From Candidatus Uhrbacteria bacterium RIFCSPLOWO2_01_FULL_47_17 (GTDB lineage: Bacteria; Patescibacteriota; Patescibacteriia; UBA9934; GWF2-40-263): 64,000 nt of DNA. The stretch is taken from NCBI GenBank assembly GCA_001791305.1, contig MGEI01000005.1:340208-404207 (forward strand), read 5' to 3'. This document shows, in pieces, positions 15,620 through 63,668 of the stretch. Under the pieces are notes generated by a model, which saw only the letters and a program-made list of their open reading frames with translations, searched no databases and had not been told where the DNA came from. The position numbers were made by a program, and so were the translations under genes. Within the stretch, counting starts at the first letter, position 1. Each line of letters starts with the position of its first letter.

Positions 15620-16786
15620 ATGAAGTACAGCATCCTGTTCCTGGTGTCCTTGTTCCTTCTCGGTGCGTGCGGGACGTTCGAAGAATCGAATGCTCCGGCG
15701 CCTGCGACCGAAGAGGATTTGGAAATGGCCGAGTTTCTCGACTGCTCGGAAGTCGGTGACTGTGACGATTCGTTTCCGGACATCAACATCACGATCGAAC
15801 TCGATTGCGAGTCGGTCGATTCGAAGAAAAAAGGCGACATCTGCGTGTCGGTCTGCAACGAGTGCCAGAGCGGCTCCGACTGCATCGACACGGATGCCGA
15901 CTGGTATCCGGACACGTGCGTGACGCCCGTCGAAGCTCCGCCTGCGCGTGAACCGCCGCCGGTTTTGGTGGCTTGCGGTGGGACATTTTTTCCGCTCGGT
16001 GAACTGTGCAGTGGTGCATCCGGTGTGTGTCAGGAAAACGGCACACGCGAATGTTTCGAAGGCAAGCTCATCTGCTCGACGGATCCAAAGGGAAGCGCAT
16101 CGCTCGCGACCAATGAAGTCTGCGACGGTAAGGACAACGATTGCGACGGAGAGACGGATGAAGGTACGTCGCTCGTTTGGTACTTTCCGGACGTGGACGG
16201 TGATGGCTACGGCACAAGCGGCAATGCGCTTCTGAAGCCGGTCGAAGTCTGCACGAATGGATTGATTCCATCCGGCTACGTCTACAAAAGCGGTGACTGC
16301 GATGACAGCTACGATACAATCTACCCTGGCAAGAATTGTCCGTTTCCTGACAGTAACAGTGCATCCAAGTTGATCGTGATCCTCAAGTCATCGAAGAAGA
16401 CAAATATGGTTGGGTACGAAGATGACCCTACAACGTTCTACTTCAAGATTGCAAAGACTCTCGAGGAAGTCGCCGGCAAGTGGAGCAGTGATTATTTTCA
16501 GTTCGATACAGAAAGCGGATTCGCCGAGCTTGCTTTGAACGCGACGGATAAGTATGTCCGGTTCAACACGATCGACGCACCTGGGTGGTGGTCGACGTGC
16601 GGTGGGGCGTTCAACGCATTCAACGCAATTGATGGGGGATTCGCGCTCAATCCTAAGCTCAAGGTTTATCAGCTCAAGAACGGAGCATGGATCAACATGA
16701 CGAGCAAGGTGGAGATGTACGAGCAACCCAACGACGCAAGCAAGACCGACAGCGGTGACCTGTGCTCGGCTCTGCTCAAGCTTTAG
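15620..16786 (+). CDS. Cys-rich lipoprotein with MopE-like putative metal-binding repeats (DGxDNDCDGxxDE), paralogue 1
   Basis: Signal peptide plus lipobox LLGAC, repeated CDGKDNDCDGETDEG motifs, and a C-terminal domain homologous to that of the 16926 gene. Confidence 0.6.
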   Translation: MKYSILFLVSLFLLGACGTFEESNAPAPATEEDLEMAEFLDCSEVGDCDDSFPDINITIELDCESVDSKKKGDICVSVCNECQSGSDCIDTDADWYPDTCVTPVEAPPAREPPPVLVACGGTFFPLGELCSGASGVCQENGTRECFEGKLICSTDPKGSASLATNEVCDGKDNDCDGETDEGTSLVWYFPDVDGDGYGTSGNALLKPVEVCTNGLIPSGYVYKSGDCDDSYDTIYPGKNCPFPDSNSASKLIVILKSSKKTNMVGYEDDPTTFYFKIAKTLEEVAGKWSSDYFQFDTESGFAELALNATDKYVRFNTIDAPGWWSTCGGAFNAFNAIDGGFALNPKLKVYQLKNGAWINMTSKVEMYEQPNDASKTDSGDLCSALLKL

Positions 16787-16799
16787 TTCCTTTCAACTC

Positions 16800-16881
16800 G
16801 TTCGACCAACTTCGGAAATTCCGAAGCTGGTCGAACCTTTTTCAGAGACATCAATCAAAGTGATTGAGTGATCTGAGAAAG
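16800..16881 (+). repeat. Conserved intergenic leader unit, copy 1 (variant): palindrome, CTTTTTCAGAGA box, second hairpin
   Basis: gttcgaccaacttcggaaattccgaagctggtcgaac followed by ctttttcagaga, catcaatcaaagtgattgagtgatctgagaaag. Confidence 0.5.
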
Positions 16882-16894
16882 TTTCTGGGTTCCT

Positions 16895-16923
16895 GTTATA
16901 GGCGGGGTCCCTTGACCCCGCGG
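16895..16923. repeat. GC-rich hairpin element gttataggcggggtcccttgaccccgc (copy 1 of 3), in the 5'UTR of the lipoprotein gene
   Basis: Near-identical copies at 24106 (upstream of smc) and 22607 (inside smc). Confidence 0.5.
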
Positions 16924-16925
16924 AG

Positions 16926-18275
16926 GTGTTTTCCATGAAGTACGGAATTTCGTTTCTGGTGTCCTTGTTCCTGCTCGCGGCGTGCGAGACGACCAATGTG
17001 TACCCGACCGAGGTGGTCGAGGTACCGAAGGCGGAAACCGCGGTGAGTTGCAGTGCGGTCGATCCGACTCAGATCGAGATCAAACTCGACTGTGCGTCGG
17101 TCGGCGCGTTCCAGCACGGCGATTCTTGCATCAGCAACTGTACGCTCTGCAGCTCGCAAGAGATCTGCATCGATACGGACGGCGACAAGTGGAAGGACAC
17201 GTGCGTGCAAGGTGAGACGCCTCTTGAAACCCCGCCGGCTCACGAGCCGACGGCGACAACGGAAGCTCCGCCCGCTCGCGAACCGCCCGTCGAAGTTCAG
17301 TGCGGCGGTACGTTCGGCATGATCGGAACTCCGTGCAGTGGCGCGTTCGGCGCATGTGCGGAAAACGGCGTACTCGAGTGTGCTGACGGCGAATGGGAAT
17401 GTTCGACGGACGTGAAGGGAAGTGAATCTCTTGCGACTGTCGAACTGTGCGACGGCAAGGACAACGATTGCGACGGGGAGACGGATGAAGACTACACGTC
17501 TGACCTTGGCAAGCAGTGCTTCGGCCTGAATCAGTGCGGTCTTGGCCCGGGCGTCGTGGTTTGCAACAAGAAAGGAGAAATCGCGCAGTTGTCCTGCACG
17601 GTCGGAACCCCGTCGACGGCATATGCAACTCTGGATTCGCCGGAGCTCTGCGATGACATCGACAACAACTGCGACGGAAAGATCGACGAAGGCTGCGCGC
17701 TGAAAGTCGATCCATCCGAAGAAGACAATGACAAGGACAGTTACATGGCTCTGAATGACTGCGACGACAACGACGCGTTGATCCATCCCGGTCTCGACAA
17801 CTGCCCGACATTCCAAGGTCTGACCAAGGACAGTTACAAGCTGGTTCTGGTCTGGGGCGGAGCGGAAAACAGTCCGTACACCGCCAACGCGTATTTCAAG
17901 TTCGGAAAGAGTGCGGTCGAGTTGCAGTTCAGCTCGAAAGTGTTCTTCGACAACACGTGGGAAGTGAAAAGTTTCCCGCAATACAATTACACGGCGACGG
18001 ATCTGGAAAAGCAGTCGTCGCACGTCGCGTTCAACGTGTTCGGATATCCGGGTTACTGGTATCTGTGTTCGGGGAACGTCGTCGATACGATTTCATTCGC
18101 GCTCTCGAAGGAGCTTCCGAAGGTGTACCTCATCTCGGGCGGCGTCTGGAAGGAGGTGGGCAGCAAGCTTGAAGTGCTCGCAGCAAATGATCTCGAGGTC
18201 GTCAAAGGACCGATTTACGGCGGCGACTACAACAAGAGCAAGCCGGCCTACTGTGCAGCCATGCTGCAACTGTAA
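16926..18275 (+). CDS. Cys-rich lipoprotein with MopE-like metal-binding repeats, paralogue 2
   Basis: Signal peptide plus lipobox LLAAC, CDGKDNDCDGETDED and CDDIDNNCDGKIDEGC motifs, and a C-terminal domain paralogous to the 15620 gene. Confidence 0.6.
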   Translation: MFSMKYGISFLVSLFLLAACETTNVYPTEVVEVPKAETAVSCSAVDPTQIEIKLDCASVGAFQHGDSCISNCTLCSSQEICIDTDGDKWKDTCVQGETPLETPPAHEPTATTEAPPAREPPVEVQCGGTFGMIGTPCSGAFGACAENGVLECADGEWECSTDVKGSESLATVELCDGKDNDCDGETDEDYTSDLGKQCFGLNQCGLGPGVVVCNKKGEIAQLSCTVGTPSTAYATLDSPELCDDIDNNCDGKIDEGCALKVDPSEEDNDKDSYMALNDCDDNDALIHPGLDNCPTFQGLTKDSYKLVLVWGGAENSPYTANAYFKFGKSAVELQFSSKVFFDNTWEVKSFPQYNYTATDLEKQSSHVAFNVFGYPGYWYLCSGNVVDTISFALSKELPKVYLISGGVWKEVGSKLEVLAANDLEVVKGPIYGGDYNKSKPAYCAAMLQL

Positions 18276-18290
18276 GCTCCTTCATCAACT

Positions 18291-18377
18291 GTTCGACCCG
18301 CTTCCTGGAAGTTCCAGAAGTCGGTCGAACCTTTTCCAGAGATCCCGATCGAAGGTCGATCGAGGGATCTGAGAATG
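18291..18377 (+). repeat. Conserved intergenic leader unit, copy 2 (hairpin type A)
   Basis: Palindrome gttcgacccgcttcctggaagttccagaagtcggtcgaac, box cttttccagaga, hairpin tcccgatcgaaggtcgatcgaggga, then tctgagaatg. SD aaaggaggg follows. Confidence 0.6.
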
Positions 18378-18403
18378 TTTTGTTCAACAAAGGAGGGTGT
18401 CCC

Positions 18404-18850
18404 ATGGGTTCAACGGCAACGTCGGCGGTTGTGGTTCAACTGGAACATGAGATCGAGACCACAAAAGATCACCTTGACCAACTCAATGAGCGTTTGCGCG
18501 AGCAGACGACGGTCGGGTGGCTGGCGATCGTCAATTTCATGTTCGGCGGCAGGATTCAGTACGTCCGTATTTCGGATCGGGCCAACAATCCGTTCGATCA
18601 CTTCGACTCCTCGTCGAAACCTCACCGACAGCGCAGCTATGTGAAGGGCTGTTCCGACATTGATCAGGTGCGGGTGCTCTTTAGCGGTTGGAACGAACCT
18701 GAGTTTGAGATGAAGCTCGAAGACGGCCGCTCGCGGATTCCGGGATCGTTTGTTTTCCTAACCAACACGAACTTGGATGCGCTGACCCGGAAGGCTGAAG
18801 CTGTCCTTTCGAGTGAACGGCGCAACAAGAGTTCTGCGCTCGGTCAATAA
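18404..18850 (+). CDS. Small hypothetical protein (149 aa), cassette gene 1
   Basis: Start at M9 of the listed ORF, 6 nt after SD aaaggaggg. No recognisable motif. Confidence 0.45.
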   Translation: MGSTATSAVVVQLEHEIETTKDHLDQLNERLREQTTVGWLAIVNFMFGGRIQYVRISDRANNPFDHFDSSSKPHRQRSYVKGCSDIDQVRVLFSGWNEPEFEMKLEDGRSRIPGSFVFLTNTNLDALTRKAEAVLSSERRNKSSALGQ

Positions 18851-18853
18851 TCT

Positions 18854-18940
18854 GTTCGACCCGCTTCCTGGAAGTTTCAGAAGTTGGTCGAACCTTTTCC
18901 AGAGATCCCGATCGAAGGTCGATCGAGGGATCTGCGAAAG
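18854..18940 (+). repeat. Conserved intergenic leader unit, copy 3 (hairpin type A)
   Basis: Nearly identical to copy 2 (gttcgacccgcttcctggaagtttcagaagttggtcgaac, cttttccagaga, tcccgatcgaaggtcgatcgaggga, tctgcgaaag). Confidence 0.6.
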
Positions 18941-18982
18941 GTAATAGTGCCCGCGCAGGAATGCGTCGGCTTGGAGAGGAAG

Positions 18983-19339
18983 ATGATGACCATGCAAGAC
19001 AAAGCGGCGATGGCTGCGTTCGAGACGATTGTCGCGCGCGGGCTTGTGGGGCGTGAGGAACTGAAGCGGTGGATCGTCGATACGCACCTGGATTGGCGCA
19101 AGACTCACTTCAAGATCTTGTTTCGGAACGCCAACAACTCGCGGCGCATCGAGTGCGAAGTGCTCAACCGGCTCGAACCGCTTTCGGATGGTGGTGTGAA
19201 GATGTCGGTCGAGATCACGATGATCACGGCCGGCGCAAGCTCGCAGGTTCCGGAAAGTCCGTGGACCGATGTGCTCTTCGACGCGGACAGGCCGCGCACG
19301 GTTCGAATGAGCAGCATGCTTCGTAAGCGTGCGGCGTAA
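18983..19339 (+). CDS. Small hypothetical protein (about 118 aa), cassette gene 2
   Basis: Start at the MMTMQDK methionines, preceded by ggagaggaag. Weak similarity to cassette gene 1 (RNANN/DRANN region). Confidence 0.4.
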   Translation: MMTMQDKAAMAAFETIVARGLVGREELKRWIVDTHLDWRKTHFKILFRNANNSRRIECEVLNRLEPLSDGGVKMSVEITMITAGASSQVPESPWTDVLFDADRPRTVRMSSMLRKRAA

Positions 19340-19559
19340 AACAAGGAGTTCCGTGGAGACTGTCATCAAATGGTTTCCCGCTGCGTGTTTCTTCTTGCTT
19401 GTGCTCGTGATGCTCTTCATCACGGCGCATGTGGGAATGTGGATGTGGCCTGGCATGATCAAAACGTGGCATGGTGTCGCGTATGTGGTCACGCATCCGG
19501 CGGAAGTTGTGGTGGGCTTGCTCATCGCATTCTGTCTGCTCGCAAACGCACTCAAGTAG
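19329..19559 (+). CDS. Small membrane protein with two transmembrane helices (about 70 aa), cassette gene 3
   Basis: Two hydrophobic helices. A possible GTG start after aaggag sits at about 19353. Low confidence because an alternative overlapping frame exists (19370..19564). Confidence 0.3.
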   Translation: MRRKTRSSVETVIKWFPAACFFLLVLVMLFITAHVGMWMWPGMIKTWHGVAYVVTHPAEVVVGLLIAFCLLANALK

Positions 19560-19577
19560 TTTGAATACAGGAGGAAC

Positions 19578-19787
19578 ATGCAGATTCAGTTTCGACTGAT
19601 CAACGGACACATCGTTCGCGCGTCCTTCGAAAACAAACCTGAACTCGCCGGATTCGGCGATACGGAGGGGCAAGCGATTGCGGCACTTCTGAAAAAGGAA
19701 AAGGCTCGCAACCTTGAGCTCCAAGCGCTTTACTTCTTGTTACGCAGTTTGCTCGGTTCACATCAGGACGGGTTCCTGGTGAACTGA
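19578..19787 (+). CDS. Small hypothetical protein (69 aa), cassette gene 4
   Basis: Strong SD acaggagg 5 nt before the ATG. Confidence 0.45.
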   Translation: MQIQFRLINGHIVRASFENKPELAGFGDTEGQAIAALLKKEKARNLELQALYFLLRSLLGSHQDGFLVN

Positions 19788-19809
19788 GATTCGTTCTTTT
19801 CACAACTTT

Positions 19810-19880
19810 CCACGTCGTCTCGAAACGACGTGGCTTTTCCAGAGACTCGCATCGACAGGCGATGCGGTGATCTGCGAAAG
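19810..19880 (+). repeat. Conserved intergenic leader unit, copy 4 (hairpin type B)
   Basis: ccacgtcgtctcgaaacgacgtgg, cttttccagaga, ctcgcatcgacaggcgatgcggtg, atctgcgaaag. Confidence 0.6.
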
Positions 19881-19939
19881 TGTTCTGGTGTCTGCACATT
19901 CAATTGCCCACACTAAAACGTGTCGGCTTGGAGATAGGC

Positions 19940-20227
19940 ATGTTGTTTTTCTTTTTGTTCGATCTGGTGTGTCTCTACATCACGGGCAATACGACCATCG
20001 ATCTTTGGGCTGCCAAACTGGTTGTCGTGTTTGGTGGAACCAACCAGGTGGTGAGCATCAACTTCTTGTTCGGTTCGGTGAACATCACAGAGGAAAATTT
20101 GACGCTGTGGATGTGGATCTCAACCGCAATTACCGCTTGGATCCTTTGGGATTTGTTCAAACAGGCGCGTCACTTTTGGCGATGGTTGATGAAACAATCA
20201 CGCGACGAAGCTCAAGTAAAATCGTAG
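19940..20227 (+). CDS. Small membrane protein (about 95 aa), cassette gene 5
   Basis: Start MLFFFLFDLV after ggagatagg; multiple transmembrane segments. Confidence 0.45.
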   Translation: MLFFFLFDLVCLYITGNTTIDLWAAKLVVVFGGTNQVVSINFLFGSVNITEENLTLWMWISTAITAWILWDLFKQARHFWRWLMKQSRDEAQVKS

Positions 20228-20237
20228 ACCTCAACTT

Positions 20238-20323
20238 GTTCGACCTGCTTCGGAAATTCCGGAGCCGGTCGAACCTTTTCCAGAGACTCGCATCGAACAG
20301 GTTGATGTGGTGATCTGCGAACG
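20238..20323 (+). repeat. Conserved intergenic leader unit, copy 5 (hairpin type B variant)
   Basis: gttcgacctgcttcggaaattccggagccggtcgaac, cttttccagaga, ctcgcatcgaacaggttgatgtggtg, atctgcgaacg, then SD taaggagg. Confidence 0.6.
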
Positions 20324-20345
20324 TTTCTCGTAAGGAGGTTTATAC

Positions 20346-20708
20346 ATGGGAATGACCTTCTGGTTTTTCTTCAGCCTGACCGCCCTTTCGGGTCTTTCGT
20401 TGTTTGTCGACGAATGGCAAAACAATGATCGACTTCGGGCGTTTTTCATCAAAGAGTGGAAGGCGTTTGTTTATTCCTCGTTCTTTCACAAATGTGCGTT
20501 TGCCCTAACAGTGGCTCTCGCCATTGATCACTACAACGAAGTGTTGCCCGTGATCTCGCTCACAAGTTACGTTTGGTCCAGCTGGTTCGTTTCTCGGATC
20601 TTGAATCCAGAACTTGGCGATGACGCAACACAAGACATGTACTCGTCATACACACCCTCACTTCCAGATCCGCTTTCAAACAACCCCCATCCTCATCATT
20701 GGAGTTGA
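20346..20708 (+). CDS. Small membrane protein (120 aa), cassette gene 6
   Basis: SD taaggagg 7 nt upstream; 3-4 transmembrane helices. Confidence 0.5.
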   Translation: MGMTFWFFFSLTALSGLSLFVDEWQNNDRLRAFFIKEWKAFVYSSFFHKCAFALTVALAIDHYNEVLPVISLTSYVWSSWFVSRILNPELGDDATQDMYSSYTPSLPDPLSNNPHPHHWS

Positions 20709-20736
20709 TGCGGTTGCGTAGCGGTTCACATTCCCT

Positions 20737-20800
20737 GGCGATGTCTCATCGCCCTTTTCCAGAGACTCGCATCGATAGGCGATGCGGAGATCTGCGGAAG
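20737..20800 (+). repeat. Conserved intergenic leader unit, copy 6 (hairpin type B)
   Basis: ggcgatgtctcatcgcc, cttttccagaga, ctcgcatcgataggcgatgcggag, atctgcggaag, then SD acaggagg. Confidence 0.6.
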
Positions 20801-20816
20801 AAACAGGAGGTAGGAT

Positions 20817-21137
20817 ATGCCCGTTCCAAACGTTTGGGATCTCATTCGGTACATCATGTGCGGACTCTTGATGGGTCTTTTCATAGTCGGCTGCAAAAGG
20901 CCTGTGGAAGAGTCTGCGGGAAAACCTGCGTACATTGCGCAGACGACTTGCTTCAAGCCTCTCAACTTCAAGGAGACCGGGAACCGCGATAATTCGCAAT
21001 GGTGCGAATACATCATTGTGGATCATCCTGAGATTCCGCCCATTTGCTGGGCAGTGGAATATCCCGATTCAACTTCCTCAACCCGGTTCGACATCTCGTG
21101 TGCCGTATTCGAAAAGGTGCAGAAGTTGAGCAAGTAA
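20817..21137 (+). CDS. Small putative lipoprotein (106 aa), cassette gene 7
   Basis: SD aggagg; signal peptide with lipobox LFIVGC; Cys-containing mature part. Confidence 0.5.
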   Translation: MPVPNVWDLIRYIMCGLLMGLFIVGCKRPVEESAGKPAYIAQTTCFKPLNFKETGNRDNSQWCEYIIVDHPEIPPICWAVEYPDSTSSTRFDISCAVFEKVQKLSK

Positions 21138-33967: not shown

Positions 33968-34582
33968 ATGTTCACCGGAATCATCAAAGGCAAATTTCCC
34001 GTTGTTTCGATTGCGGATCGCGAAGGATTGCGATCGTTTATTGTTCAATTATCGCCTGAGCTTGTCGAAGGCCTTTCGACAGGCGCATCTGTTGCGATCG
34101 ACGGCGTTTGTTTTACGGTGACGCAGATCGATGGCACACGCGTCTCGTTCGATGCGATGGAAGAGACGTTGCGAAAAACGACGATCGGTTCGCTCAAAGA
34201 AAACGATCACGTAAACATCGAACGCTCGGCGCGCATAGGAGATGAAATTGGTGGACATGTGATGTCGGGGCATGTCTCGACCATGGCGGAGATTGTTGCG
34301 GTGAACGAAACAGAAAATAATAAAGCGGTGACGTTCAAGGTGTCACCCGAGTGGATGCGATTTATTTTCTCGAAAGGATTTATTTCTCTCGACGGTGCAT
34401 CACTCACGGTTGTCGATGCAGACAAGATAAACGGAACATTTCAAGTCTGGTTTATTCCCGAGACATTACGAATCACAAAATTTGGAGAGAAGGGAATTGG
34501 AGATCGTGTAAATCTCGAAATCGATCCACAGACGCAAGTCATCGTCGAGACCGTTGAGAATTACTTGAGACAACAGCGATAA
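33968..34582 (+). CDS. ribE: Riboflavin synthase alpha subunit
   Basis: MFTGIIKG...; duplicated lumazine-binding half-domains. Confidence 0.85.
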   Translation: MFTGIIKGKFPVVSIADREGLRSFIVQLSPELVEGLSTGASVAIDGVCFTVTQIDGTRVSFDAMEETLRKTTIGSLKENDHVNIERSARIGDEIGGHVMSGHVSTMAEIVAVNETENNKAVTFKVSPEWMRFIFSKGFISLDGASLTVVDADKINGTFQVWFIPETLRITKFGEKGIGDRVNLEIDPQTQVIVETVENYLRQQR

Positions 34583-34594
34583 AAATAAAAAAAG

Positions 34595-34640
34595 ATCCCC
34601 CTTCACTCACTCTTCCACTCCATCACTCTTTCACTTTTCC
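34595..34640. repeat. GTGA-rich palindromic element, single-arm copy (copy 2 of 4), just upstream of ribH
   Basis: cccttcactcactcttccactccatcactctttcacttttccc matches the right arm of the element at 46310 and 55755. Confidence 0.45.
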
Positions 34641-34643
34641 CTT

Positions 34644-35045
34644 ATGTCCCACCGCATCGCTCTCGTCCTCGGATCATTTCACAAAAAAGAAGCAGACGAC
34701 ATGTTGGTCGTGGCTCATGAAACAGCGCTCGAGAATCATCTCGAAATTGTCGAGATCGTTTGGGTTCCAGGTTCCATGGAAGCGCCGCTCGCACTCAAGC
34801 GCTTGCTGATGCGCGACGACATCGACGCAGCTGTCGCGCTCGGCATTATCGAGCGCGGAGAAACCAAGCACGGGCTCGTGATGGGAGAAGTTGTGTATGA
34901 CGCAATCATTCGCCTTCAACTCGAGTTCATGAAACCAATCGGCTTCGGAATTCTCGGACCGGAAATTTTGCCGGAGCAGATCGAGAAGCGTGTAAAACCG
35001 TACGCACGCGCTGCGGTTGAGGCGGCGGCGAAAATGCTTGCATAA
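34644..35045 (+). CDS. ribH: 6,7-dimethyl-8-ribityllumazine synthase
   Basis: IALVLGSFHKKEADDML...VPGSMEAPL; 133 aa. Confidence 0.8.
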   Translation: MSHRIALVLGSFHKKEADDMLVVAHETALENHLEIVEIVWVPGSMEAPLALKRLLMRDDIDAAVALGIIERGETKHGLVMGEVVYDAIIRLQLEFMKPIGFGILGPEILPEQIEKRVKPYARAAVEAAAKMLA

Positions 35046-45941: not shown

Positions 45942-47069
45942 ATGCGCATTTTAGGAATCGAATCAAGCTGTGACGAAACCGCGATGGCGCTTGTTTCGGA
46001 AAACGAAGGCGGCATTGTGATTGAAAAAAGTTTGGTCGCATCACAAATCGATCTTCACAAAATTTACGGTGGCGTTGTGCCAGAAGTTGCGGCGCGTGAA
46101 CACGTGAGTGCTATTTTTCCAATGCTCCTCGAGATGGGTATTTCACGCGATGGTCATGAGATCGACGCTATTGCCGTGACGGCGGGCCCCGGACTTGTTG
46201 CTGCGCTCCGCATCGGCGTCGAACTCGCAAAAACACTTGCATGGATGTGGAACAAGCCGCTTGTTGCGGCGAATCACCTTGAGGGGCACGTGTATTCGGT
46301 GTGGGGGCAGGGGAGCAAGAGTGAAAGAGTGATGGAGTGTAAGAGTGAAGGTAAGGGGAAATTCTTTGATTTTATTAACAAACAAAAAAAGGTTTTTCTT
46401 CCATCACTCAACCACTCCATCACTCAACCACTCTGTCTCCCTCCCCAATTTCCCGCCCTGTGTCTCCTCGTCTCCGGTGGTCATACGGAACTTTTTCTCA
46501 TGCGTGATCATGGACAATACGAACTCATTGGTATGACGCGTGATGATGCGGCGGGGGAAGCGTTTGATAAAGTTGCGAAGCTTCTTGGACTTGGATATCC
46601 AGGCGGACCCGCTATCTCGAAGATCGCGCTCGAAGGGAACCCAAACGCGATTGCGTTTCCGCGTCCAATGATTGAAAGCGGAGATTCTGATTTTAGTTTT
46701 TCAGGATTAAAGACGGCTGTGCGAGTGTATCTCGAAGCGCATCCGGAAGCATCCGTCGCAGATGTTGCCGCGTCATTCCAACAAGCTGTCGTCGAGATTC
46801 TTACGATCAAAACGCTTGCGGCCGTCAATCAATTTTCACCTAAATCTGTTATTTTATCCGGTGGCGTCTCTGCAAATCGCGCGCTGCGAGATTTACTCTC
46901 GAGCGAACTCACGAAACAATTTCCGGATGTGACGTTTCATGCTCCAGATCTTTCACTCTCTGGCGATAACGCCGCAATGATCGCGATTGCAGGACTCTTC
47001 CGCGCAAAGCAAAAAGATTTTACAGACCCGCTTTCACTCGAAGCCCAGCCGAATCTTCGGCTGGTATAG
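45942..47069 (+). CDS. tsaD: tRNA N6-adenosine threonylcarbamoyltransferase TsaD (Kae1/Qri7 family) carrying an in-frame insertion of about 42 aa
   Basis: MRILGIESSCDETA, HLEGH, LLVSGGHTEL, GEAFDKVAKLLGLGYPGGP. The insertion sits between GHVYSVW and FPALCLLVSGGHT. Confidence 0.85.
   Translation: MRILGIESSCDETAMALVSENEGGIVIEKSLVASQIDLHKIYGGVVPEVAAREHVSAIFPMLLEMGISRDGHEIDAIAVTAGPGLVAALRIGVELAKTLAWMWNKPLVAANHLEGHVYSVWGQGSKSERVMECKSEGKGKFFDFINKQKKVFLPSLNHSITQPLCLPPQFPALCLLVSGGHTELFLMRDHGQYELIGMTRDDAAGEAFDKVAKLLGLGYPGGPAISKIALEGNPNAIAFPRPMIESGDSDFSFSGLKTAVRVYLEAHPEASVADVAASFQQAVVEILTIKTLAAVNQFSPKSVILSGGVSANRALRDLLSSELTKQFPDVTFHAPDLSLSGDNAAMIAIAGLFRAKQKDFTDPLSLEAQPNLRLV
46310..46445. repeat. GTGA-rich palindromic element (copy 3 of 4) inserted in-frame in tsaD
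   Basis: Left arm gagcaagagtgaaagagtgatggagtgtaagagtgaagg, AT-rich centre, right arm ccatcactcaaccactccatcactcaaccactctg. It is translated as GQGSKSERVMECKSEGKGKFFDFINKQKKVFLPSLNHSITQPLCLPPQ. Confidence 0.55.
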
Positions 47070-55754: not shown

Positions 55755-55885
55755 ATTGGATTAATCTTAAGAAGTGAATGAGTGACTGAGTGAAAGAGTG
55801 TTGGACGGTGCGATTTATTTATTTCAAATAAATAAAAAGTTGTCTCTTTTCCTTCACTTTACCACTCCATCACTCAACCACTTTG
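55755..55885. repeat. GTGA-rich palindromic element (copy 4 of 4), upstream of the 55898 gene
   Basis: Left arm gaagtgaatgagtgactgagtgaaagagtg, central AT palindrome gatttatttatttcaaataaataaa, right arm ccttcactttaccactccatcactcaaccactttg. Confidence 0.55.
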
Positions 55886-55897
55886 CCGCCCTCTCCT

Positions 55898-57620: not shown

Positions 57621-60125
57621 ATGGCACAAAAAAAACAACATTCTGAACCGGAAGAACCCGTTCAAGATATCACGACAAATGGGATTGGACGCATTGAGCG
57701 CCGAAACATTGCCGATGAAATGCAAACCGCATATCTCGACTACGCCATGTCCGTCATTGTTGGTCGTGCGCTTCCGGATATTCGCGATGGACTGAAACCA
57801 GTTCACCGCCGCATTTTGTATTCCATGTGGCAGACGGGACTCCGATCAAGTGCAAAGTTCAAAAAGTGTGCGTCTGTGGTTGGAGATGTACTCGGAAAGT
57901 ATCACCCACACGGAGATTCCGCTGTGTATGACTCGCTCGTGCGTATGGCGCAAGATTTTTCGATGCGCTATCCACTGATCCGCGGACAAGGGAACTTTGG
58001 ATCTCTCGATGGCGACCCGGCTGCGGCGTATCGATATACAGAAGCAAAGCTTGAAACCATTTCGGAAGAATTGCTTGTTGATATCGAGAAGGAGACGGTC
58101 GACTTCATTCCAAACTTTGATGGCACACACAAAGAACCAAAAGTGTTGCCTGCAAAACTTCCAAACTTGCTCATCAACGGAACAGTTGGAATCGCGGTTG
58201 GAATGGCGTCGAATATCCCTCCGCACAACCTCGGAGAAGTTTGTGATGCGGTACTCGCATTGATTCGCGACAAGGATACATCGATCGAGGATCTGTCAGA
58301 GATCGTTAAGGGTCCAGATTTTCCAACGGGTGGAATTGCGTACAGTAATGCGGACATCAAAACCGCCCTCGCAACCGGTCGTGGGGGGGTGGTCGTTCGA
58401 GGCAAAACGGATATTGTGGAAGATAAGAAAGGCAATTTCGCCATTATCATCACAGAAATTCCGTACCAAGTGAACAAAGCAAACTTGCTTATTCGCATTG
58501 CACAGAATGTTCGCGATAAGAAGATCGAAGGGATTAAAGATTTGCGCGACGAATCAACATCCGCCGGTGTTCGTGTTGTTGTTGAGTTAAAAAAAGATGC
58601 GTATCCAAAGAAAGTGTTGAATCGTTTGTATCAAACAACACAACTTCAGGAATCCACACACTACAACATGCTCGCACTTGTGGAGGGTGGAATTTTGCCG
58701 CGCGTACTCAACCTCAAGATGATTCTTGAGGAGTATCTCAAACATCGCCAAGAAGTGGTGAAGCGCCGCACACAGTTTGAACTTACGCGCGCGCTTGATC
58801 GTGCACATATCCTCGAAGGATTGCGCATTGCGCTCGCGCAGATCGACAAGATTATTGCGTGTATCAAGAAATCAAAAGACAAAGAAGAAGCGCGATTGAA
58901 CTTGATCAAACAATTTAAACTTTCCGAGAGACAAGCGGTCGCGATTCTCGACATGCGTTTGCAACAGCTTGCGAACCTAGAGACGTTGCGCATCGAACAA
59001 GAATATGCGGAAAAGATGGCGCTCATCAAAGAGCTTGAGTCTATTCTTGCAAGCGCAAAAAAGATGATGATGGTGATTGCGGAAGAAGTGGAAGGATTGA
59101 AACTCAAGTACGCGTCCCCTCGAAGAACTCAAATCATCAAGTCGGGAATTAAAGAATTCTCGATCGAAGACGTCGTTCCAGACACGGAAACGGTCGTAAT
59201 GATCACAAAAGCCGGATACATCAAGCGCATCGACCCAGACACATTCCGCACACAAAAGCGTGGAGGGAAGGGGGTCGTCGGCATGGCGTCCAAAGATGAG
59301 GATGAGGTCGAGCAAGTATTCTCGACAACCACACACAAAGATCTTCTGTTCTTCACGAGTAGAGGTCGTGTGTTCCAACTTAAAGCTTACGATGTTCCAG
59401 AGGCGTCGCGCATTGCGAAAGGCCAAGCGCTCGTAAACTTCCTCCAACTCGCGCCAGGTGAATCGGTATCCGCGTCGTTGTCGATGGACGAGCTCGCGGA
59501 CTCGAAATATCTTCTCATGGTGACAAACAAGGGAACGATCAAGAAAACAGATTTGTCCGAGTATGATTCCGTTCGCAAGTCGGGGTTGATCTCGATCAAA
59601 CTCCGAGACGGCGACAACCTCCAATGGGTTCGTCCAACGTCCGGAAAAGATCAGATCATGCTCGTGACATCCGGTGGACAAGCGGTTCGCTTCGAAGAAA
59701 AAGGCGTGCGCCCAATGGGTCGTGTCGCCTCTGGTGTTCGAGGAATCAAGCTCAAGGGTGATGATTCTGTGGTTGGAATGGGAATCATTCCAGGCTCCTC
59801 ATCGAAGAAACCGGGAGAGAAAGAGATTTTGGTTGTGATGGAAAACGGATACGGAAAACGCTCGGACCTTATCGAGTATAAGGTCCAAGGACGTGGCGGA
59901 TCCGGAATTAAAACCGCAAATATCAGCAAAAAGACAGGAAAAATCGTCGCGGCGCATATCGTCGATACGAAAGACGAGCGTGATATGTTCATTATTTCCG
60001 GCGCGGGTCAGGTGATCCGATCTGAACTGAAGTCCGTCTCTGTCCTCGGTCGCGCAACCCAAGGAGTTCGCATTATGCGATTCAAGAAGCCAGATGACAC
60101 GGTCGCGAGTGCTGCCCTCATTTAG
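57621..60125 (+). CDS. gyrA: DNA gyrase subunit A
   Basis: [26 protein letters not shown], active-site Tyr region [10 protein letters not shown], and C-terminal beta-pinwheel repeats; 834 aa. Confidence 0.95.
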
Positions 60126-60163
60126 CCAAAAAGACTGTGGTTTTTGCCACAGTCTTTTGATTT
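60123..60163 (+). repeat. 41-bp direct repeat, left copy (includes the gyrA stop and a perfect terminator hairpin)
   Basis: tagccaaaaagactgtggtttttgccacagtcttttgattt, identical to 63349-63389. Confidence 0.8.
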
Positions 60164-60177
60164 TTCTAACAAATCAT

Positions 60178-60206
60178 TGACATTTTTGGGATTTTATGTT
60201 ATTATC
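60178..60206 (+). promoter_or_regulatory. Sigma70-like promoter for the DGR target gene (TTGACA, 17 nt, TATTAT)
   Basis: ttgacatttttgggattttatgttattat. Confidence 0.4.
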
Positions 60207-60333
60207 TTCCGTCATTTGAATTTCGCACAAGGTGATTTTCGGTGACATGCAGTGTCTACTTTTTGTTCGCTCCGAGCCTCGCGACGGAATTTCCGTCACA
60301 ACCGCTTGATCGGAACAAAATGCGGAGGAAGAT

Positions 60334-60993
60334 ATGGCAAAGCAGTCTTGGAGAATCAAGCTCGAGCAATGGCTCGCGGCAAATGGTGATGAAGGCATGT
60401 CCGGAGTAGTGGATCATCTTGCGATTTTGACTCGCGCGACGAGTCTTGTTCGTAAGCCCGGATTCAAAAAAGCTCTGGAGAAATTTTTGGACGAATGGGC
60501 CGGTCTTCCCGAACAAAAGGCCGATCCGATCCTCCGTCGCCTCTTTGAAGACGAAACGATCACCATCGCTCCGTGCGACGGTTCCCGGTACGTCGCCAAA
60601 GAAAAAGGCGTGTTCAAAGCGTACATCGAAGGTCTCTTCGCAAGTTGGGGTCTCGACAAGCCTGGACAGTCCACGGTTGCCGCGAATGTCTCCGTCTACG
60701 AGATGATCCGGGACGCGACCTTCGCTCAGATGTTCGGCTCTCTCGGGCCAGATCTCGACAAACTGTGTCTCTCACAGCATCAGATCGTCGAGTTCTGCGA
60801 AACGCATTCGGCACGTCTTCGGCAAGAAGGCTACGCCACATTCTTTCTTTTTAAGGAAGGCGATCAGTTCTACGTTGCGGGCGTGCGTGTCCACGCGGGC
60901 GGCCTGAGCGTGTACGTCCGCCGTCTCGAGCGCGACGATGTCTGGTATGGCGAGTTTCGTCATCGTCTCGTAGTCCCGCAACTGACCGTTTGA
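60334..60993 (+). CDS. DGR variable (target) protein with the C-terminal VR; no signal peptide
   Basis: The C-terminal 38 codons are matched by the TR with adenine-specific differences. Residues at the variable positions are G, R, H, G, S, Y, R, R, D, Y, F. Confidence 0.8.
   Translation: MAKQSWRIKLEQWLAANGDEGMSGVVDHLAILTRATSLVRKPGFKKALEKFLDEWAGLPEQKADPILRRLFEDETITIAPCDGSRYVAKEKGVFKAYIEGLFASWGLDKPGQSTVAANVSVYEMIRDATFAQMFGSLGPDLDKLCLSQHQIVEFCETHSARLRQEGYATFFLFKEGDQFYVAGVRVHAGGLSVYVRRLERDDVWYGEFRHRLVVPQLTV
60865..60978 (+). repeat. DGR variable repeat (VR), 114 nt
   Basis: Aligned with the TR at 61294-61407 there are 16 mismatches, and every one falls at a TR adenine. Confidence 0.85.
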
Positions 60994-61057
60994 AACTTAT
61001 TCGGATGACACTTTGTTTCTTTGTCCCTTTGACTCTTTTGAGTCCGGGGGATTTTTT

Positions 61058-61066
61058 TGTATAATG
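61058..61066 (+). promoter_or_regulatory. Extended -10 promoter element (TGTATAAT) positioned to transcribe the TR-containing RNA
   Basis: tgtataatg lies 25 nt downstream of the target-gene terminator hairpin gactcttttgagtc and about 230 nt upstream of the TR. Confidence 0.35.
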
Positions 61067-61293
61067 CATTTGCAATCGTGCGATATCTTGTGGCCAAGGC
61101 TACAAGGTCACGATTGTTTGGAATCGTTGTTGAGAATTTTGTTGGCTACGGCTTGCAAAAGAGTGATAATGATTCTGACAAACAAAAACTTTTCAGTTGG
61201 TGCGGTGCGCTTGTGGACTTCTTCGTCCCAAATAAAATTCAGCCGAATTTCTCGTGCACGATAAATCGGCAGTGATCTGGATGGCCCATCGTA

Positions 61294-61407
61294 CAATTCT
61301 ACGTTGCGAACGTGAATGTCAACGCGGACGGCCTGAACGTGAACGTCAACCGTCTCGAGAACGACAATGTCTGGAATGGCGAGTATCGTCATCGTCTCGT
61401 AGTCCCG
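61294..61407 (+). repeat. DGR template repeat (TR), 114 nt, in the same orientation as the VR
   Basis: The adenine-rich template consists of AAC/AAT codons at the variable positions. Confidence 0.85.
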
Positions 61408-61419
61408 AAAATGAAATGT

Positions 61420-61446
61420 TCTCCTCCCTATTGTTTGGGAGGAGTT
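61420..61446. terminator. Bidirectional terminator hairpin between the TR and the convergent avd gene
   Basis: ctcctccctattgtttgggaggag, followed by ttttcttttc on the + strand. The avd stop codon lies in its loop. Confidence 0.45.
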
Positions 61447-61769
61447 TTCTTTTCAATATCTTTTTTCCATCCGCCAAGCATTCTTCCAATTTCATCTAAA
61501 TCAACGGAAAGCGCAGTATATTTATCATTCGGCAGGCATTTGTTTTCCCACGCAATTTGTAAAAAGAATTTCACTCCGTCCAGTTTTGAAATACAGATGG
61601 TGAGTCGATTCATTTTTTGCTCACCGGAAAGATATTGCGAAACAAAAATTTGCTCAAGCATTTCGAGAAAGTATCCCTCAATCTTTCCACCAAGATTATG
61701 ACGCGATGTTTTTGGAAAATCTGTAAGCAATTTAAACCAATTTGTATAGGCACTCCTCGTTTTTGTCAT
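61428..61769 (-). CDS. avd: Avd-like accessory variability determinant (four-helix-bundle / 23S rRNA-IVS protein family), encoded on the strand opposite to the TR and RT
   Basis: FPKTSRHNLGGKIEGYFLEMLEQ and LDEIGRMLGGW match the Avd/IVS four-helix-bundle family consensus; 113 aa. Confidence 0.7.
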   Translation of the reverse strand: MTKTRSAYTNWFKLLTDFPKTSRHNLGGKIEGYFLEMLEQIFVSQYLSGEQKMNRLTICISKLDGVKFFLQIAWENKCLPNDKYTALSVDLDEIGRMLGGWKKDIEKKTPPKQ

Positions 61770-61824
61770 GACCGAAGGAGTTCGGGGGGGGGGTGAGAAT
61801 ATTAGACATATTCATTGAGCGTTT

Positions 61825-62829
61825 ATGAAAAAATTTAACCGCCGTTACGATGATATTATAACACTCGATAATTTACTTCGTGCATGGGAACAGTTTTTAT
61901 CGGGGAAGAAAAATCGTACGGATGTTGTGGAATTTCAAAATCATCTCATGGATAATATTTGTGATCTACAGCGATCACTCGAAGATAAAACGTATGTGCA
62001 TGGTGCATATCACGCATTTAATATTTCCGATCCAAAACCAAGGAGTATTCATAAGGCAACCGTCCGCGATCGGTTGCTTCACCATCTGATACATTCAGAG
62101 TTGTATGAATACTTCGATCAGAAATTTATTTACGATTCTTATTCGTGCCGAATGGAGAAGGGGACGCATAAGGCTATGAATCGATTCAGAGACTTTGGCA
62201 GAATTGTTTCAAAAAATAATACACGCACCTGTTGGGTATTGAAATGCGATATTCGAAAGTTCTTTGCAAATATCGATCACACAATCTTGAAAGATATTTT
62301 GGCAAAGCATATTGAGGATCGTGATGTGTTGAATCTTCTCGGTAACATCATCGATAGTTTTTCGACGCTCGGAAGAAAAGAGGTTGGTCTCCCGCTTGGA
62401 AATCTCACTTCGCAACTTCTCGTAAACATCTACATGAACGAGTTTGATCAGTTTATGAAGCGAACGGTCAAAGCGGAATATTACATTCGGTATGCAGATG
62501 ATTTTGTGATTTTGCATGAGGATGAGGAATATCTAAAACAGCTCATTCCAAAGATTTCAAATTTCCTCCAGGATCAGCTGGGACTTTGTTTGCACCCGGA
62601 TAAGTTGTTTCTGAAGACGCTTGTGTCCGGCGTTGATTTTCTAGGATGGGTACACTTTCCGCATCATCGGACGTTACGTACGGCCACAAAACGACGGATG
62701 TTCATACGGATTCAGGATCACTCGACACAAGAAACAATTCAATCGTATTTGGGGCTTATGAGACATGGGAATACCCATCAGCTTCAAAAGAATCCTTTAT
62801 TTCTTGACGTAAAGATCAAAGATCGATAA
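61825..62829 (+). CDS. DGR reverse transcriptase
   Basis: RT motifs include the DGR-diagnostic motif 4 (LPLGNLTSQLLVNIYM) and the YADDF catalytic box. Confidence 0.9.
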   Translation: MKKFNRRYDDIITLDNLLRAWEQFLSGKKNRTDVVEFQNHLMDNICDLQRSLEDKTYVHGAYHAFNISDPKPRSIHKATVRDRLLHHLIHSELYEYFDQKFIYDSYSCRMEKGTHKAMNRFRDFGRIVSKNNTRTCWVLKCDIRKFFANIDHTILKDILAKHIEDRDVLNLLGNIIDSFSTLGRKEVGLPLGNLTSQLLVNIYMNEFDQFMKRTVKAEYYIRYADDFVILHEDEEYLKQLIPKISNFLQDQLGLCLHPDKLFLKTLVSGVDFLGWVHFPHHRTLRTATKRRMFIRIQDHSTQETIQSYLGLMRHGNTHQLQKNPLFLDVKIKDR

Positions 62830-62862
62830 AGTAGAAAAGTAAGAATGTAAGAAATAACTCCT

Positions 62863-63105
62863 ATGATCAATATTGTAAAAACGACGAGCAAAGGACAAGT
62901 CACATTGCCCATGCACTGGCGTAAAAAATTTCACACAAATCGCTATACAATGAAAGAGGTTAATGACACGCTTGTTATTTCTCCACTTGAGGTTGAGTCG
63001 CTCGAAGAAGAGAATTGGACAACAATTTTTGATGCGAAACGTGACAATGAAGGGAAGGGAATCCCGATCGATCAGCTTATTGATACATTGAAGCGCACAC
63101 TCTAG
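62863..63105 (+). CDS. AbrB/MazE/SpoVT-type antitoxin
   Basis: Swapped-hairpin motif TTSKGQVTLPMHWRKKF; 80 aa. Confidence 0.55.
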   Translation: MINIVKTTSKGQVTLPMHWRKKFHTNRYTMKEVNDTLVISPLEVESLEEENWTTIFDAKRDNEGKGIPIDQLIDTLKRTL

Positions 63106-63111
63106 CTTTCT

Positions 63112-63351
63112 ATGGATAAAATCGAAAAGCTTTTACGTAAAGCAAAGAAAGCAGATCGTGAGCGGTTATTGGCAGTATTGGAGGCTGTTCGAGAGGGGAA
63201 ACTCGAGGGATTGCACGTAAAACGACTGACAAATTCCGCTTTTTATCGGGTTCGTGTTGGAGATTTCAGGATTATTTTCTCAATCGATCACGCAAATAAA
63301 CGTATTTTGATCGAATCTGTCTCATCTCGAGACGAGAATACATACAAATAG
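63112..63351 (+). CDS. RelE/ParE-family toxin
   Basis: AFYRVRVGDFRIIFSIDHANKRILIESVSSRDE is a typical RelE/ParE C-terminal core; 79 aa; 6 nt after the antitoxin. Confidence 0.6.
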   Translation: MDKIEKLLRKAKKADRERLLAVLEAVREGKLEGLHVKRLTNSAFYRVRVGDFRIIFSIDHANKRILIESVSSRDENTYK

Positions 63352-63389
63352 CCAAAAAGACTGTGGTTTTTGCCACAGTCTTTTGATTT
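63349..63389 (+). repeat. 41-bp direct repeat, right copy (includes the toxin stop and terminator hairpin)
   Basis: tagccaaaaagactgtggtttttgccacagtcttttgattt. Confidence 0.8.
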
Positions 63390-63446
63390 CTTGACGCGAG
63401 GGCTGAAAAATGATAGTATTTGTGTATTAAATTCTGTTTATTTCCT

Positions 63447-63668
63447 ATGCCAGTACCAGCCCGTAAGAAATCCAATCCGTCCGGCAAACGCCGACGTTCC
63501 CATGACCATCTTACAAAGAAAGTCATTCCAGCCTGCCCACAGTGTGCCGCTCCTATAAAACCACATAACGCCTGCCTCACATGCGGTTTTTATGCTGGTC
63601 GTCAAGTTATTACGGTTGGAAAAGCCATTGCGAAAGCGGTAAAAAAAGTAGCAAAAAAGAAAGCTTAA
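63447..63668 (+). CDS. rpmF: 50S ribosomal protein L32
   Basis: MPVPARKKSNPSGKRRRSHDHL plus a CxxC...CxxC zinc ribbon. A TTGACG/TGATAGTAT promoter lies upstream. Confidence 0.85.
   Translation: MPVPARKKSNPSGKRRRSHDHLTKKVIPACPQCAAPIKPHNACLTCGFYAGRQVITVGKAIAKAVKKVAKKKA

Follow-up and report, generated by a model that had tools for sequence, protein, structure and literature searches.

We analyzed a 64,000-nucleotide stretch of Candidatus Uhrbacteria bacterium RIFCSPLOWO2_01_FULL_47_17 (contig MGEI01000005.1, positions 340,208 to 404,207 of the forward strand; hereafter the window), in which a diversity-generating retroelement (DGR) and a toxin-antitoxin (TA) module lie between gyrA and rpmF, bracketed by two identical copies of a 41-mer. 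We consider it likely that this repeat is the native terminator of gyrA, and that the junction behind it is a hot spot at which the DGR and the TA module were inserted separately, each time with duplication of terminator sequence. The initial annotation of the locus had proposed an insertion that duplicated the gyrA terminator. That proposal holds in outline, but not as a single event, because a half copy of the terminator in the middle of the DNA between the repeats (hereafter the island) implies at least two insertions.

The repeat, TAGCCAAAAAGACTGTGGTTTTTGCCACAGTCTTTTGATTT, is found exactly at 60123-60163 and 63349-63389, both times on the plus strand and, as originally annotated, at the ends of gyrA and of the toxin gene. 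Its first 3 bases are themselves the TAG stop codon of gyrA (left copy) and of the toxin (right copy). Identity ends at ATT/TAG versus AAA/TAG on the left edge and at GATTT/TTCTAA versus GATTT/CTTGAC on the right, and it covers 41 of 41 positions, including the bases outside the stem (TAGCC, the loop, and GATTT). The number of 41-mer matches expected by chance is 0 (100 shuffles), and the 64-kb window holds no third copy of the 41-mer with up to 3 mismatches. Both copies are also present and unchanged in all independent contigs of the same species that span the locus (L001, L002, L004, L008, and L012). They number at least 5, come from different samples and assemblers (ENA megahit, Rifle scaffold, and JGI assemblies), and rule out an assembly artifact as the source of the repeat. 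The JGI contigs L007 and L010 carry the 41-mer as well. The species occurs in Rifle and other groundwater metagenomes (e.g. ERZ4903072, ERZ27254846, and JGI 3300025323). Among 185,579 GTDB species representatives the hairpin core of the repeat occurs once in the only Uhrbacteria match, while its pattern also matched 8 unrelated genomes (Clostridia and others); viral contigs gave zero matches. With 2 copies in the window, a single Uhrbacteria match, and no viral match, the 41-mer is not a dispersed generic repeat, and the objection that it might be a widespread terminator flanking unrelated loci fails.

Both copies fold into a hairpin whose stem is 13 bp long (-19.6 kcal/mol, z = -5.4). A T-rich tail comes after it, and both copies were scored as terminator-like. 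The arrangement is that of an intrinsic terminator, i.e. a stable, GC-containing hairpin and a U-tract straight after the stop codon, and a sigma-70-like promoter lies 3' of each copy, that of the DGR target behind the left one and that of rpmF behind the right one (Table 1). Judged from its sequence, we take the 41-mer to be the native intrinsic (Rho-independent) terminator of gyrA. In a relative whose GyrA is 89% identical at the amino acid level (L033), the homologous gyrA hairpin carries 3 compensatory pair changes. These support a role for the structure, as expected of a terminator.

Relatives were found through a ladder of GyrA homologues leading to syntenic Uhrbacteria contigs. Two of them have the empty site that the initial annotation had suggested looking for, with gyrA, a single copy of the 41-mer, and rpmF contiguous. 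Specifically, L030 (GyrA 93% identical in amino acids) has gyrA, one 41-mer (41/41), about 190 bp of rpmF promoter and leader, and rpmF, and L032 (GyrA 91%) has the same order with the 41-mer at 41/42. Other relatives carry different cargo. L019 (GyrA 98% in amino acids, about 85% in nucleotides) harbors a full DGR at the same site without the TA module, while L033 has an APH-like kinase gene at the terminator/promoter junction (L033 8504-9610) and its terminator is not duplicated; the TGA stop of this kinase gene overlaps the rpmF -35 box TTGACA. L028 and L029 have one target-like gene after a different gyrA terminator, with the native hairpin (2 arm mutations) still 5' of the rpmF promoter. 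Two target-like paralogues follow a different gyrA terminator in L026, where the hairpin is reduced to a trace, and L031 has a fused double target gene, again with a different gyrA terminator. The states seen at this one terminator/promoter junction thus include the empty site, target gene(s) only, the DGR, and the DGR with the TA module. The content between the copies varies among relatives while the synteny of the flanks is kept, in agreement with the annotation of the former as accessory and the latter as core, and this varied cargo at the gyrA/rpmF junction marks it as a recombination hot spot.

The island itself records more than one event. In L019, the reverse transcriptase (RT) frame leads directly to GGTTTTTGCCACAGTCTTTTGATTT, a half terminator of 25 nt, and the rpmF -35 box, CTTGACG, comes next; an exact 32-nt match to this half terminator plus CTTGACG lies at L019 5552-5583. 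A second relative, L037 (RT 83% identical in amino acids), has a degenerate half terminator and GATTTCTTGACG at the colinear position, followed by the TA operon. In the window, a decayed copy of the same combination is found at 62793-62809, with a score reached by 0 of 1000 shuffles, and from this alignment the remnant appears to mark the former right border of the DGR insertion. The layout would then be T(full, 60123-60163)-DGR-T(half, 62793-62809)-TA-T(full, 63349-63389), where T is the terminator, which implies at least 2 duplicative insertions at the terminator/promoter junction.

The two modules are also found apart. A homologous TA module (toxin 75% identical) with the same promoter and 5' untranslated region (UTR) lies in L035 at an unrelated locus (ndk-TA-...), with its own terminator and no DGR. 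Together with the DGR of L019, which lacks the TA module, and the half copy between the two modules, this shows that the DGR and the TA module are separate insertions. The initial suggestion that the DGR travels with an addiction module as one cassette is contradicted by these same 3 observations. The DGR and the TA module are co-resident and co-inherited at the locus yet separable, and adjacency of RT and TA recurs in at least one other lineage (L037).

With regard to age, the junction that runs from the toxin gene through its TAG, the terminator, the promoter, and a short leader into rpmF is common to the window, L034, and L036, despite identities of the TA genes with those of the window of 89% (L034) and 79% (L036) in nucleotides. 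As such, the duplication that gave the right copy is old. When the window is compared over 14 kb of synteny with L030 and L032, about 82% identical to it in gyrA, no exact match is longer than that at the terminator (45 and 43 nt). Because the terminator is the most conserved stretch of the region, no age for the duplication can be read from the perfect identity of its copies. Window and L036 are identical at 100 of 101 positions between the 41-mer and the rpmF ATG, while the flanking genes are 79-84% identical; L034 reaches 95% over the same stretch, though it is closer overall. These values indicate very strong constraint on this stretch, recent homologous exchange, or both.

Signals on the order of insertion conflict. 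For example, rpmF and nusB of L036 are nearer to those of L019 and L026, yet its TA module and short leader are as in the window, and this conflict between leader type and rpmF/nusB points to recombination. With the TA module first, a local duplication of 48 bp would suffice to give the right full copy, and L019 would follow from simple deletion between the middle copy and the right one. With the DGR first, L019 would represent the ancestral state.

Under the reading we favor, i.e. separate insertions of the DGR and the TA module with duplication of the terminator, the ancestral locus would have had one 41-mer directly 5' of the rpmF promoter. In the lineage of the window, this terminator/promoter junction would have taken up at least 2 modules, the active DGR and a TA operon of the RelE/ParE-AbrB type, each with its own promoter, and the terminator sequence would have been duplicated at each insertion. 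The left border of the TA module would lie on the microhomology TTGAC, common to the -35 boxes of rpmF and the TA operon, and its right border on the microhomology TAG, common to the stop codons of gyrA and the toxin, while the right border of the DGR would lie at the hairpin loop. Most probably, the hairpin or microhomology would have mediated illegitimate recombination or template switching, with duplication of the segment between the switch points. Later homologous recombination between lineages would have shuffled the modules and produced the mosaic distribution among relatives. The 2 full copies may have been kept identical by unusually strong constraint or by recombinational homogenization, and a recent duplication would not be required.

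The left copy would end gyrA transcription, and the right copy would end transcription of the RT and TA genes and give rpmF its native terminator-promoter context back. Transcription of gyrA and rpmF would thus be left undisturbed and the insertions tolerated. The direct repeats would also be substrates for deletion, with recombination between the middle and right copies leading to loss of the TA module (an L019-like state) and recombination between the left and right copies to the empty site. The predicted junctions are gyrA-41mer-CTTGACGCGAGGG for deletion of the whole island and RT-...-GATTTCTTGACGCGAGGGCTG...TAGTAT for deletion of the TA module alone, and a circle, if any, would have the junction ...ACATACAAA-41mer-TTCTAACAAATC.

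Several points weigh against this reading. The middle remnant is only 17 nt long, and its homology is convincing mainly through its colinearity with L019 and L037. Termination of transcripts at the hairpin is a prediction, and the copy count of the 41-mer spans the 64-kb window rather than the whole genome of its organism. The relatives are metagenome contigs, of which L034, L036, and L037 (from ERZ27280326, SRR22387945, and SRR22387975) are only about 1.1-1.25 kb long, with the wider context beyond view. L019 may be a state that precedes the TA module or one that has lost it; its junction fits both, with either the DGR or the TA module first. Finally, the perfect palindrome with its spacer of 4-6 nt, the extreme conservation, the breakpoints at the loop, and the re-use of the site would also fit an attachment site for a recombinase acting in trans.

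We regard this last possibility as unlikely. The hairpin would be the attachment site of a chromosomal recombinase (Xer-like or other) or of some other activity that targets hairpins, and promoter-bearing cassettes would be added to it serially in a dif/IMEX-like (IMEX, integrative mobile elements exploiting Xer) or integron-like manner, each leaving a copy of the site behind. Such accretion would account for 3 terminator-derived copies in series (T-DGR-T(half)-TA-T), for at least 5 cargo states at one junction, for the breakpoint at the loop, and for a hairpin that is conserved together with its loop and flanks at 41/41 against a background of 82%, as the longest exact match in 14 kb. However, no recombinase is found in the island or within +/-10 kb, and the insertion points vary: in L028 between stop codon and hairpin, in L033 after the hairpin without duplication, and in L026 and L031 with the hairpin lost. 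The duplicated lengths are also unequal (25 nt versus 41-48 nt), the TA module of L035 lacks such a site, the window shows no GC-skew switch suggesting a dif region, and the structure in L033 is kept by compensatory changes, as for a terminator and not a sequence-specific site. Likewise unlikely is the idea that the ultra-conserved gyrA palindrome is a dedicated capture site for promoter-bearing cassettes (DGR, TA, kinase, and target paralogues), where a hairpin-targeted mechanism acting in trans would regenerate a copy of the site each time, integron-like and with no integrase in cis.

The locus does show an att-type pattern, i.e. direct repeats at both ends and a one-copy empty site in relatives. 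Evidence of mobility was looked for in and around the island. No integrase, transposase, or recombinase is found in the island or within +/-10 kb; all open reading frames (ORFs) of at least 100 aa and all contig-called genes in the island belong to the DGR or the TA module, except for a 94-aa ORF over the template repeat (TR). Apart from the hairpins themselves, the ends of the island have no inverted repeats, and at 41 bp the duplication greatly exceeds the usual target-site duplications of transposons. Comparisons with phages, plasmids, and viruses gave no DNA match, with the closest viral RT 61% identical. Look-ups of the toxin, L32, and RT all lead to the same locus, and none returned the DGR and TA block elsewhere. 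A scan of the island against Rfam gave nothing credible, including no ribozyme, and no GC-skew switch, the sign of a terminus or dif region, is present in the window.

These results bear on the idea that the DGR and the TA module form a single integrative cassette, with the gyrA terminator as attB, the 41-bp copies as attL and attR, and the TA module as addiction module, to which we give a low probability. The perfect direct repeats at both borders, the one-copy empty site, the renewed adjacency of RT and TA in L037, and the arm-spacer-arm layout of the hairpin, typical of core sites of tyrosine recombinases and with the breakpoint of L019 and L037 at the loop, all agree with it. Nevertheless, L019 has the DGR without the TA module at the same site, L035 has the TA module without the DGR elsewhere, and a third, half copy separates the two. 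The sequence divergence of the TA module follows that of the hosts, and other signs of a moving module were not seen either: the look-ups returned the block at no other site, the island and the 10 kb on either side lack integrase and transposase genes, and phage, plasmid, or viral similarity is absent from the comparisons made. That the 2 copies are unrelated, convergent generic terminators or an assembly artifact is refuted by the chance expectation of 0, the 41/41 identity outside as well as inside the stem, the at least 5 independent assemblies, and the orthology of each copy to one in relatives, even if hairpins with A and T tracts are common and the core pattern occurs in 8 unrelated genomes.

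Table 1. Coordinates of features from gyrA to nusB in the window.
Feature	Coordinates	Strand	Remarks
gyrA, 834 aa, core	57621..60125	+	Pfam DNA_topoisoIV and DNA_gyraseA_C; TAG stop is the first 3 bases of the left repeat
Left full 41-mer, predicted native gyrA terminator	60123..60163	+	Hairpin 60129-60158; same sequence after gyrA in L030, L032, L019
DGR target promoter, sigma-70-like	60177..60205	+	TTGACA-17-TATTAT; 11/12 match
DGR target 5'UTR	60206-60333	+	90.6% identical to L019; kept in L026 target B
DGR target gene, 219 aa	60334..60993	+	Variable repeat (VR) at 3' end, 60865-60985
Hairpin and T-run CCCTTTGACTCTTTTGAGTCCGGGGGATTTTTTTG	61025..61058	+	Just 3' of VR; kept after every target paralogue in relatives; read from sequence
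DGR template repeat (TR)	61294..61414	+	121 nt, 85% identical to VR
avd accessory gene, 113 aa	61428..61769	-	Pfam bAvd 51.8 bits, cut-off 40
DGR reverse transcriptase, 334 aa	61825..62829	+	Pfam RVT_1, E = 9e-24
Decayed middle copy, terminator 3' end and -35 box	62793..62809	+	TCCTTT-ATTTCTTGACG vs TCTTTTGATTTCTTGACG; repeat family D15
TA promoter and 5'UTR	62804..62862	+	TTGACG-17-TAAAGT; GTAAGAA direct repeats in the 5'UTR; same element upstream of TA in L034, L035, L036, L037
Antitoxin, 80 aa, AbrB/MazE-type N-terminus	62863..63105	+	Pfam MazE_antitoxin 22.7 bits, below cut-off 24.7
RelE/ParE-superfamily toxin, 79 aa	63112..63351	+	Pfam ParE_toxin 25.0 bits, above cut-off 23
Right full 41-mer	63349..63389	+	Hairpin 63355-63384; same toxin-TAG-terminator-promoter junction in L034, L036
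rpmF promoter, sigma-70-like	63391..63419	+	TTGACG-17-TAGTAT; then short leader 63420-63446
rpmF (ribosomal protein L32), core	63447..63668	+	Pfam Ribosomal_L32p; synteny kept in all relatives
nusB, core	from 63745		Pfam NusB; 3' of rpmF

The content between the copies is as initially annotated, with a DGR target with its VR, a TR, bAvd, RT, an AbrB/MazE-like antitoxin, and a RelE/ParE-like toxin. TR and VR differ at 18 positions, all of them TR adenines (18/18), so that 18 of 33 A positions are changed, and same-species contigs carry 3 VR haplotypes whose differences are confined to the VR. Adenine-confined differences and multiple haplotypes together mark the DGR as active.

The target has no match in Pfam, NCBIfam, or PDB sequences, although its family (residues about 62-219) comprises 1878 cluster representatives at 50% identity (E <= 1e-3). 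A Foldseek search of PDB and BFVD with a confident AlphaFold2 (AF2) model of it (34-sequence alignment, pLDDT 89.8) gave no match (best E 0.15-0.25, TM <= 0.2). The target may have a C-type-lectin fold that has diverged, or a scaffold for VR display not described so far. The hairpin just 3' of the VR would be either a terminator or a VR-proximal DGR hairpin. The 5'UTR of the target (about 130 nt; window 60206-60333, L019 2944-3070, L026 10425-10609) is about 90% conserved across lineages; 2 hairpins are predicted in it, with scant covariation and no Rfam match. The target-like genes of relatives (L026 9670-11269, L028 9371-10003, and L031 8653-9798, a 381-aa fusion) carry VR-like 3' ends and the conserved downstream hairpin, with TR, avd, and RT absent at the locus. 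They could be orphan targets served in trans or be remnants of DGR loss.

In addition to its Pfam match, avd reaches 61 bits with NCBIfam DivGenRetAVD, below the cut-off of 80. For the RT, the best NCBIfam match is a group II RT, below cut-off, from a set without a DGR-specific RT model. Hundreds of RT homologues at 65-78% identity are found in the CPR (candidate phyla radiation); these cover only 94-96% of the window RT. The last 13 or so residues form a tail that homologues do not cover, which fits reading from junction DNA in the alignment with L019 and L037. Between window and L019 (61825-62829 versus 4563-5573) the RT is 77% identical in amino acids although GyrA is at 98%, and RTs of other CPR lineages are equally close to that of the window (65-78%). 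The 3' half of the RT gene diverges most, at 79% nucleotide identity versus 86-89% for avd, TR, and the VR-TR spacer in the same comparison, a pattern suggesting that the RT has evolved fast or has been replaced in part. The 94-aa ORF (window 61108-61392, minus strand), which public contigs list as a gene, lies across the TR and the VR-TR spacer and is probably spurious.

Within the TA module, the toxin also matches archaeal RelE (1wmi, E = 1.5e-5) and RelE3 (3bpq) by profile. Its homologues are 77-81 aa long and end in ...TYK, and this family-typical length and ending indicate that TAG is the natural stop of the toxin. The antitoxin reaches 18 bits with the NCBIfam AbrB domain, below cut-off. 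Its assignment is supported by the position of the gene directly 5' of the toxin gene with a 6-nt gap, in a pair that is kept in L034-L037. Speculatively, the TA module might stabilize the island by counter-selecting repeat-mediated losses.

As for the core flanks, GyrA of the window is 100% identical to that of Candidatus Uhrbacteria bacterium RIFCSPHIGHO2_02_FULL_47_44 (CPR/Patescibacteria). Relatives without the TA module have a GTAG-repeat hairpin of about 110 nt with compensatory AA<->TT changes in the 5' leader of rpmF (L030 9596-9746, L032 4037-4181, L028 10150-10283, L026 11372-11504, and L019 5584-5716), while all TA-bearing lineages (window 63420-63446, L034, and L036) have a leader of about 30 nt without it. 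A scan of the relatives' leader against Rfam gave nothing credible, and the hairpin could be a regulatory leader of L32 that was lost on arrival of the TA module. The empty-site relatives also have a second, perfect 30-nt GC-rich palindrome, TCCGGCGAAGCCGGATCCGGCTTCGCCGGA, between gyrA terminator and rpmF promoter (L030 9550-9579 and L032 3979-4008), with one compensatory change between the two; it is absent from all island-bearing lineages. Long low-complexity hairpins are further found just upstream of start codons at 46310-46440, 55770-55890, and about 34580-34657 of the window. Here a purine-rich GAGTGA-type arm pairs with a TCACTC-type arm, in a design like that of the relatives' rpmF leader, and the genome may have in these hairpins a class of 5'UTR element.

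Positions 62790-62865 of the window were also considered to be what is left of a long rpmF leader (z about 4-7). This reading was mostly dropped, as the promoter and UTR go with the TA module at the unrelated locus of L035, and it was further weakened by similar purine-rich leader hairpins being common in the window; only 62793-62809 was retained. Unrelated to the 41-mer, a paralogous gene cluster at 16000-21000 of the window has repeated palindromic intergenic elements of 47-92 nt as spacers (repeat families D2, D4, D6, and D7).

How do these parts compare with known systems? The prototype DGR, that of BPP-1, has the order mtd-avd-TR-brt. Unlike in known DGRs, avd of the window sits between TR and RT and is encoded on the opposite strand, Foldseek matches the predicted fold of the target to none of the solved structures, C-type-lectin DGR targets among them, and the C-terminal tail of the RT appears to be read from a host terminator remnant. 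Otherwise, the element is a typical CPR DGR, with RT, Avd, a 121-nt TR/VR pair differing only at TR adenines, and a VR at the 3' end of a small target without recognizable domain, in a cellular, non-viral CPR genome. DGRs of CPR/Patescibacteria form clade 2, which is cellular, restricted to the CPR, and has targets without recognizable domain (Roux et al. 2021, PMC8144416).

The TA module resembles type II modules of the RelBE kind (aRelE-aRelB, 1wmi) in having 2 small adjacent genes, antitoxin first and 6 nt apart, a toxin that matches Pfam ParE_toxin above cut-off and aRelE by profile, and its own promoter, whose direct repeats may form an operator. It differs in that the antitoxin is below curated cut-offs and the activity of the module is putative. 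Its place directly 5' of a ribosomal-protein gene, with a gyrA terminator copy at its end, is a further difference.

Genomic islets at core-gene hot spots arise by illegitimate or microhomology-mediated recombination and are spread by homologous recombination in their flanks. Our locus shares with them the variable accessory content between core genes, the empty site, the microhomology junctions, the mosaic distribution, and the lack of mobility genes in the searches above. By contrast, its borders are unusually long, perfect terminator duplications, and the same terminator was duplicated serially more than once. Elements that use palindromic or hairpin sites and leave direct site repeats include IMEX at dif, pdif modules of Acinetobacter (often with TA genes), attC cassettes of integrons, and class C group II introns, which target terminators. 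Here, too, copies of a palindromic site enclose cargo that includes a TA module, one insertion follows another at a single site, and a terminator hairpin is the target. However, no Xer, IntI, or intron components were found, nor a ribozyme with Rfam, and the junctions are irregular between relatives; compared with pdif modules, the sites are direct and not inverted. By eye, the 41-mer is also unlike what we take to be the consensus sequences of dif. Literature searches returned no account of a DGR linked to a TA module, nor of a terminator duplicated in this way.

The elements at this locus are of known kinds, i.e. a CPR DGR, a RelE-type TA module, and an intrinsic terminator, and nothing here alters existing knowledge of DGRs or TA systems, so we rate the significance of the finding as moderate to low. 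The informative part is the arrangement, in which copies of a host terminator mark the seams. The large family of CPR DGR targets also deserves attention, given its confident predicted fold without a match among solved structures. Testable predictions include deletion products between the copies, a possible stabilization of the DGR by the TA module, and the insulation of rpmF by the regenerated terminator. More broadly, one can follow at this locus, cleanly and step by step, how the streamlined genome of a CPR bacterium would gain and lose accessory functions without mobility genes, and the locus illustrates that a long perfect direct repeat need not signal a recent or single event, because the repeated sequence can itself be the most conserved stretch of its region.

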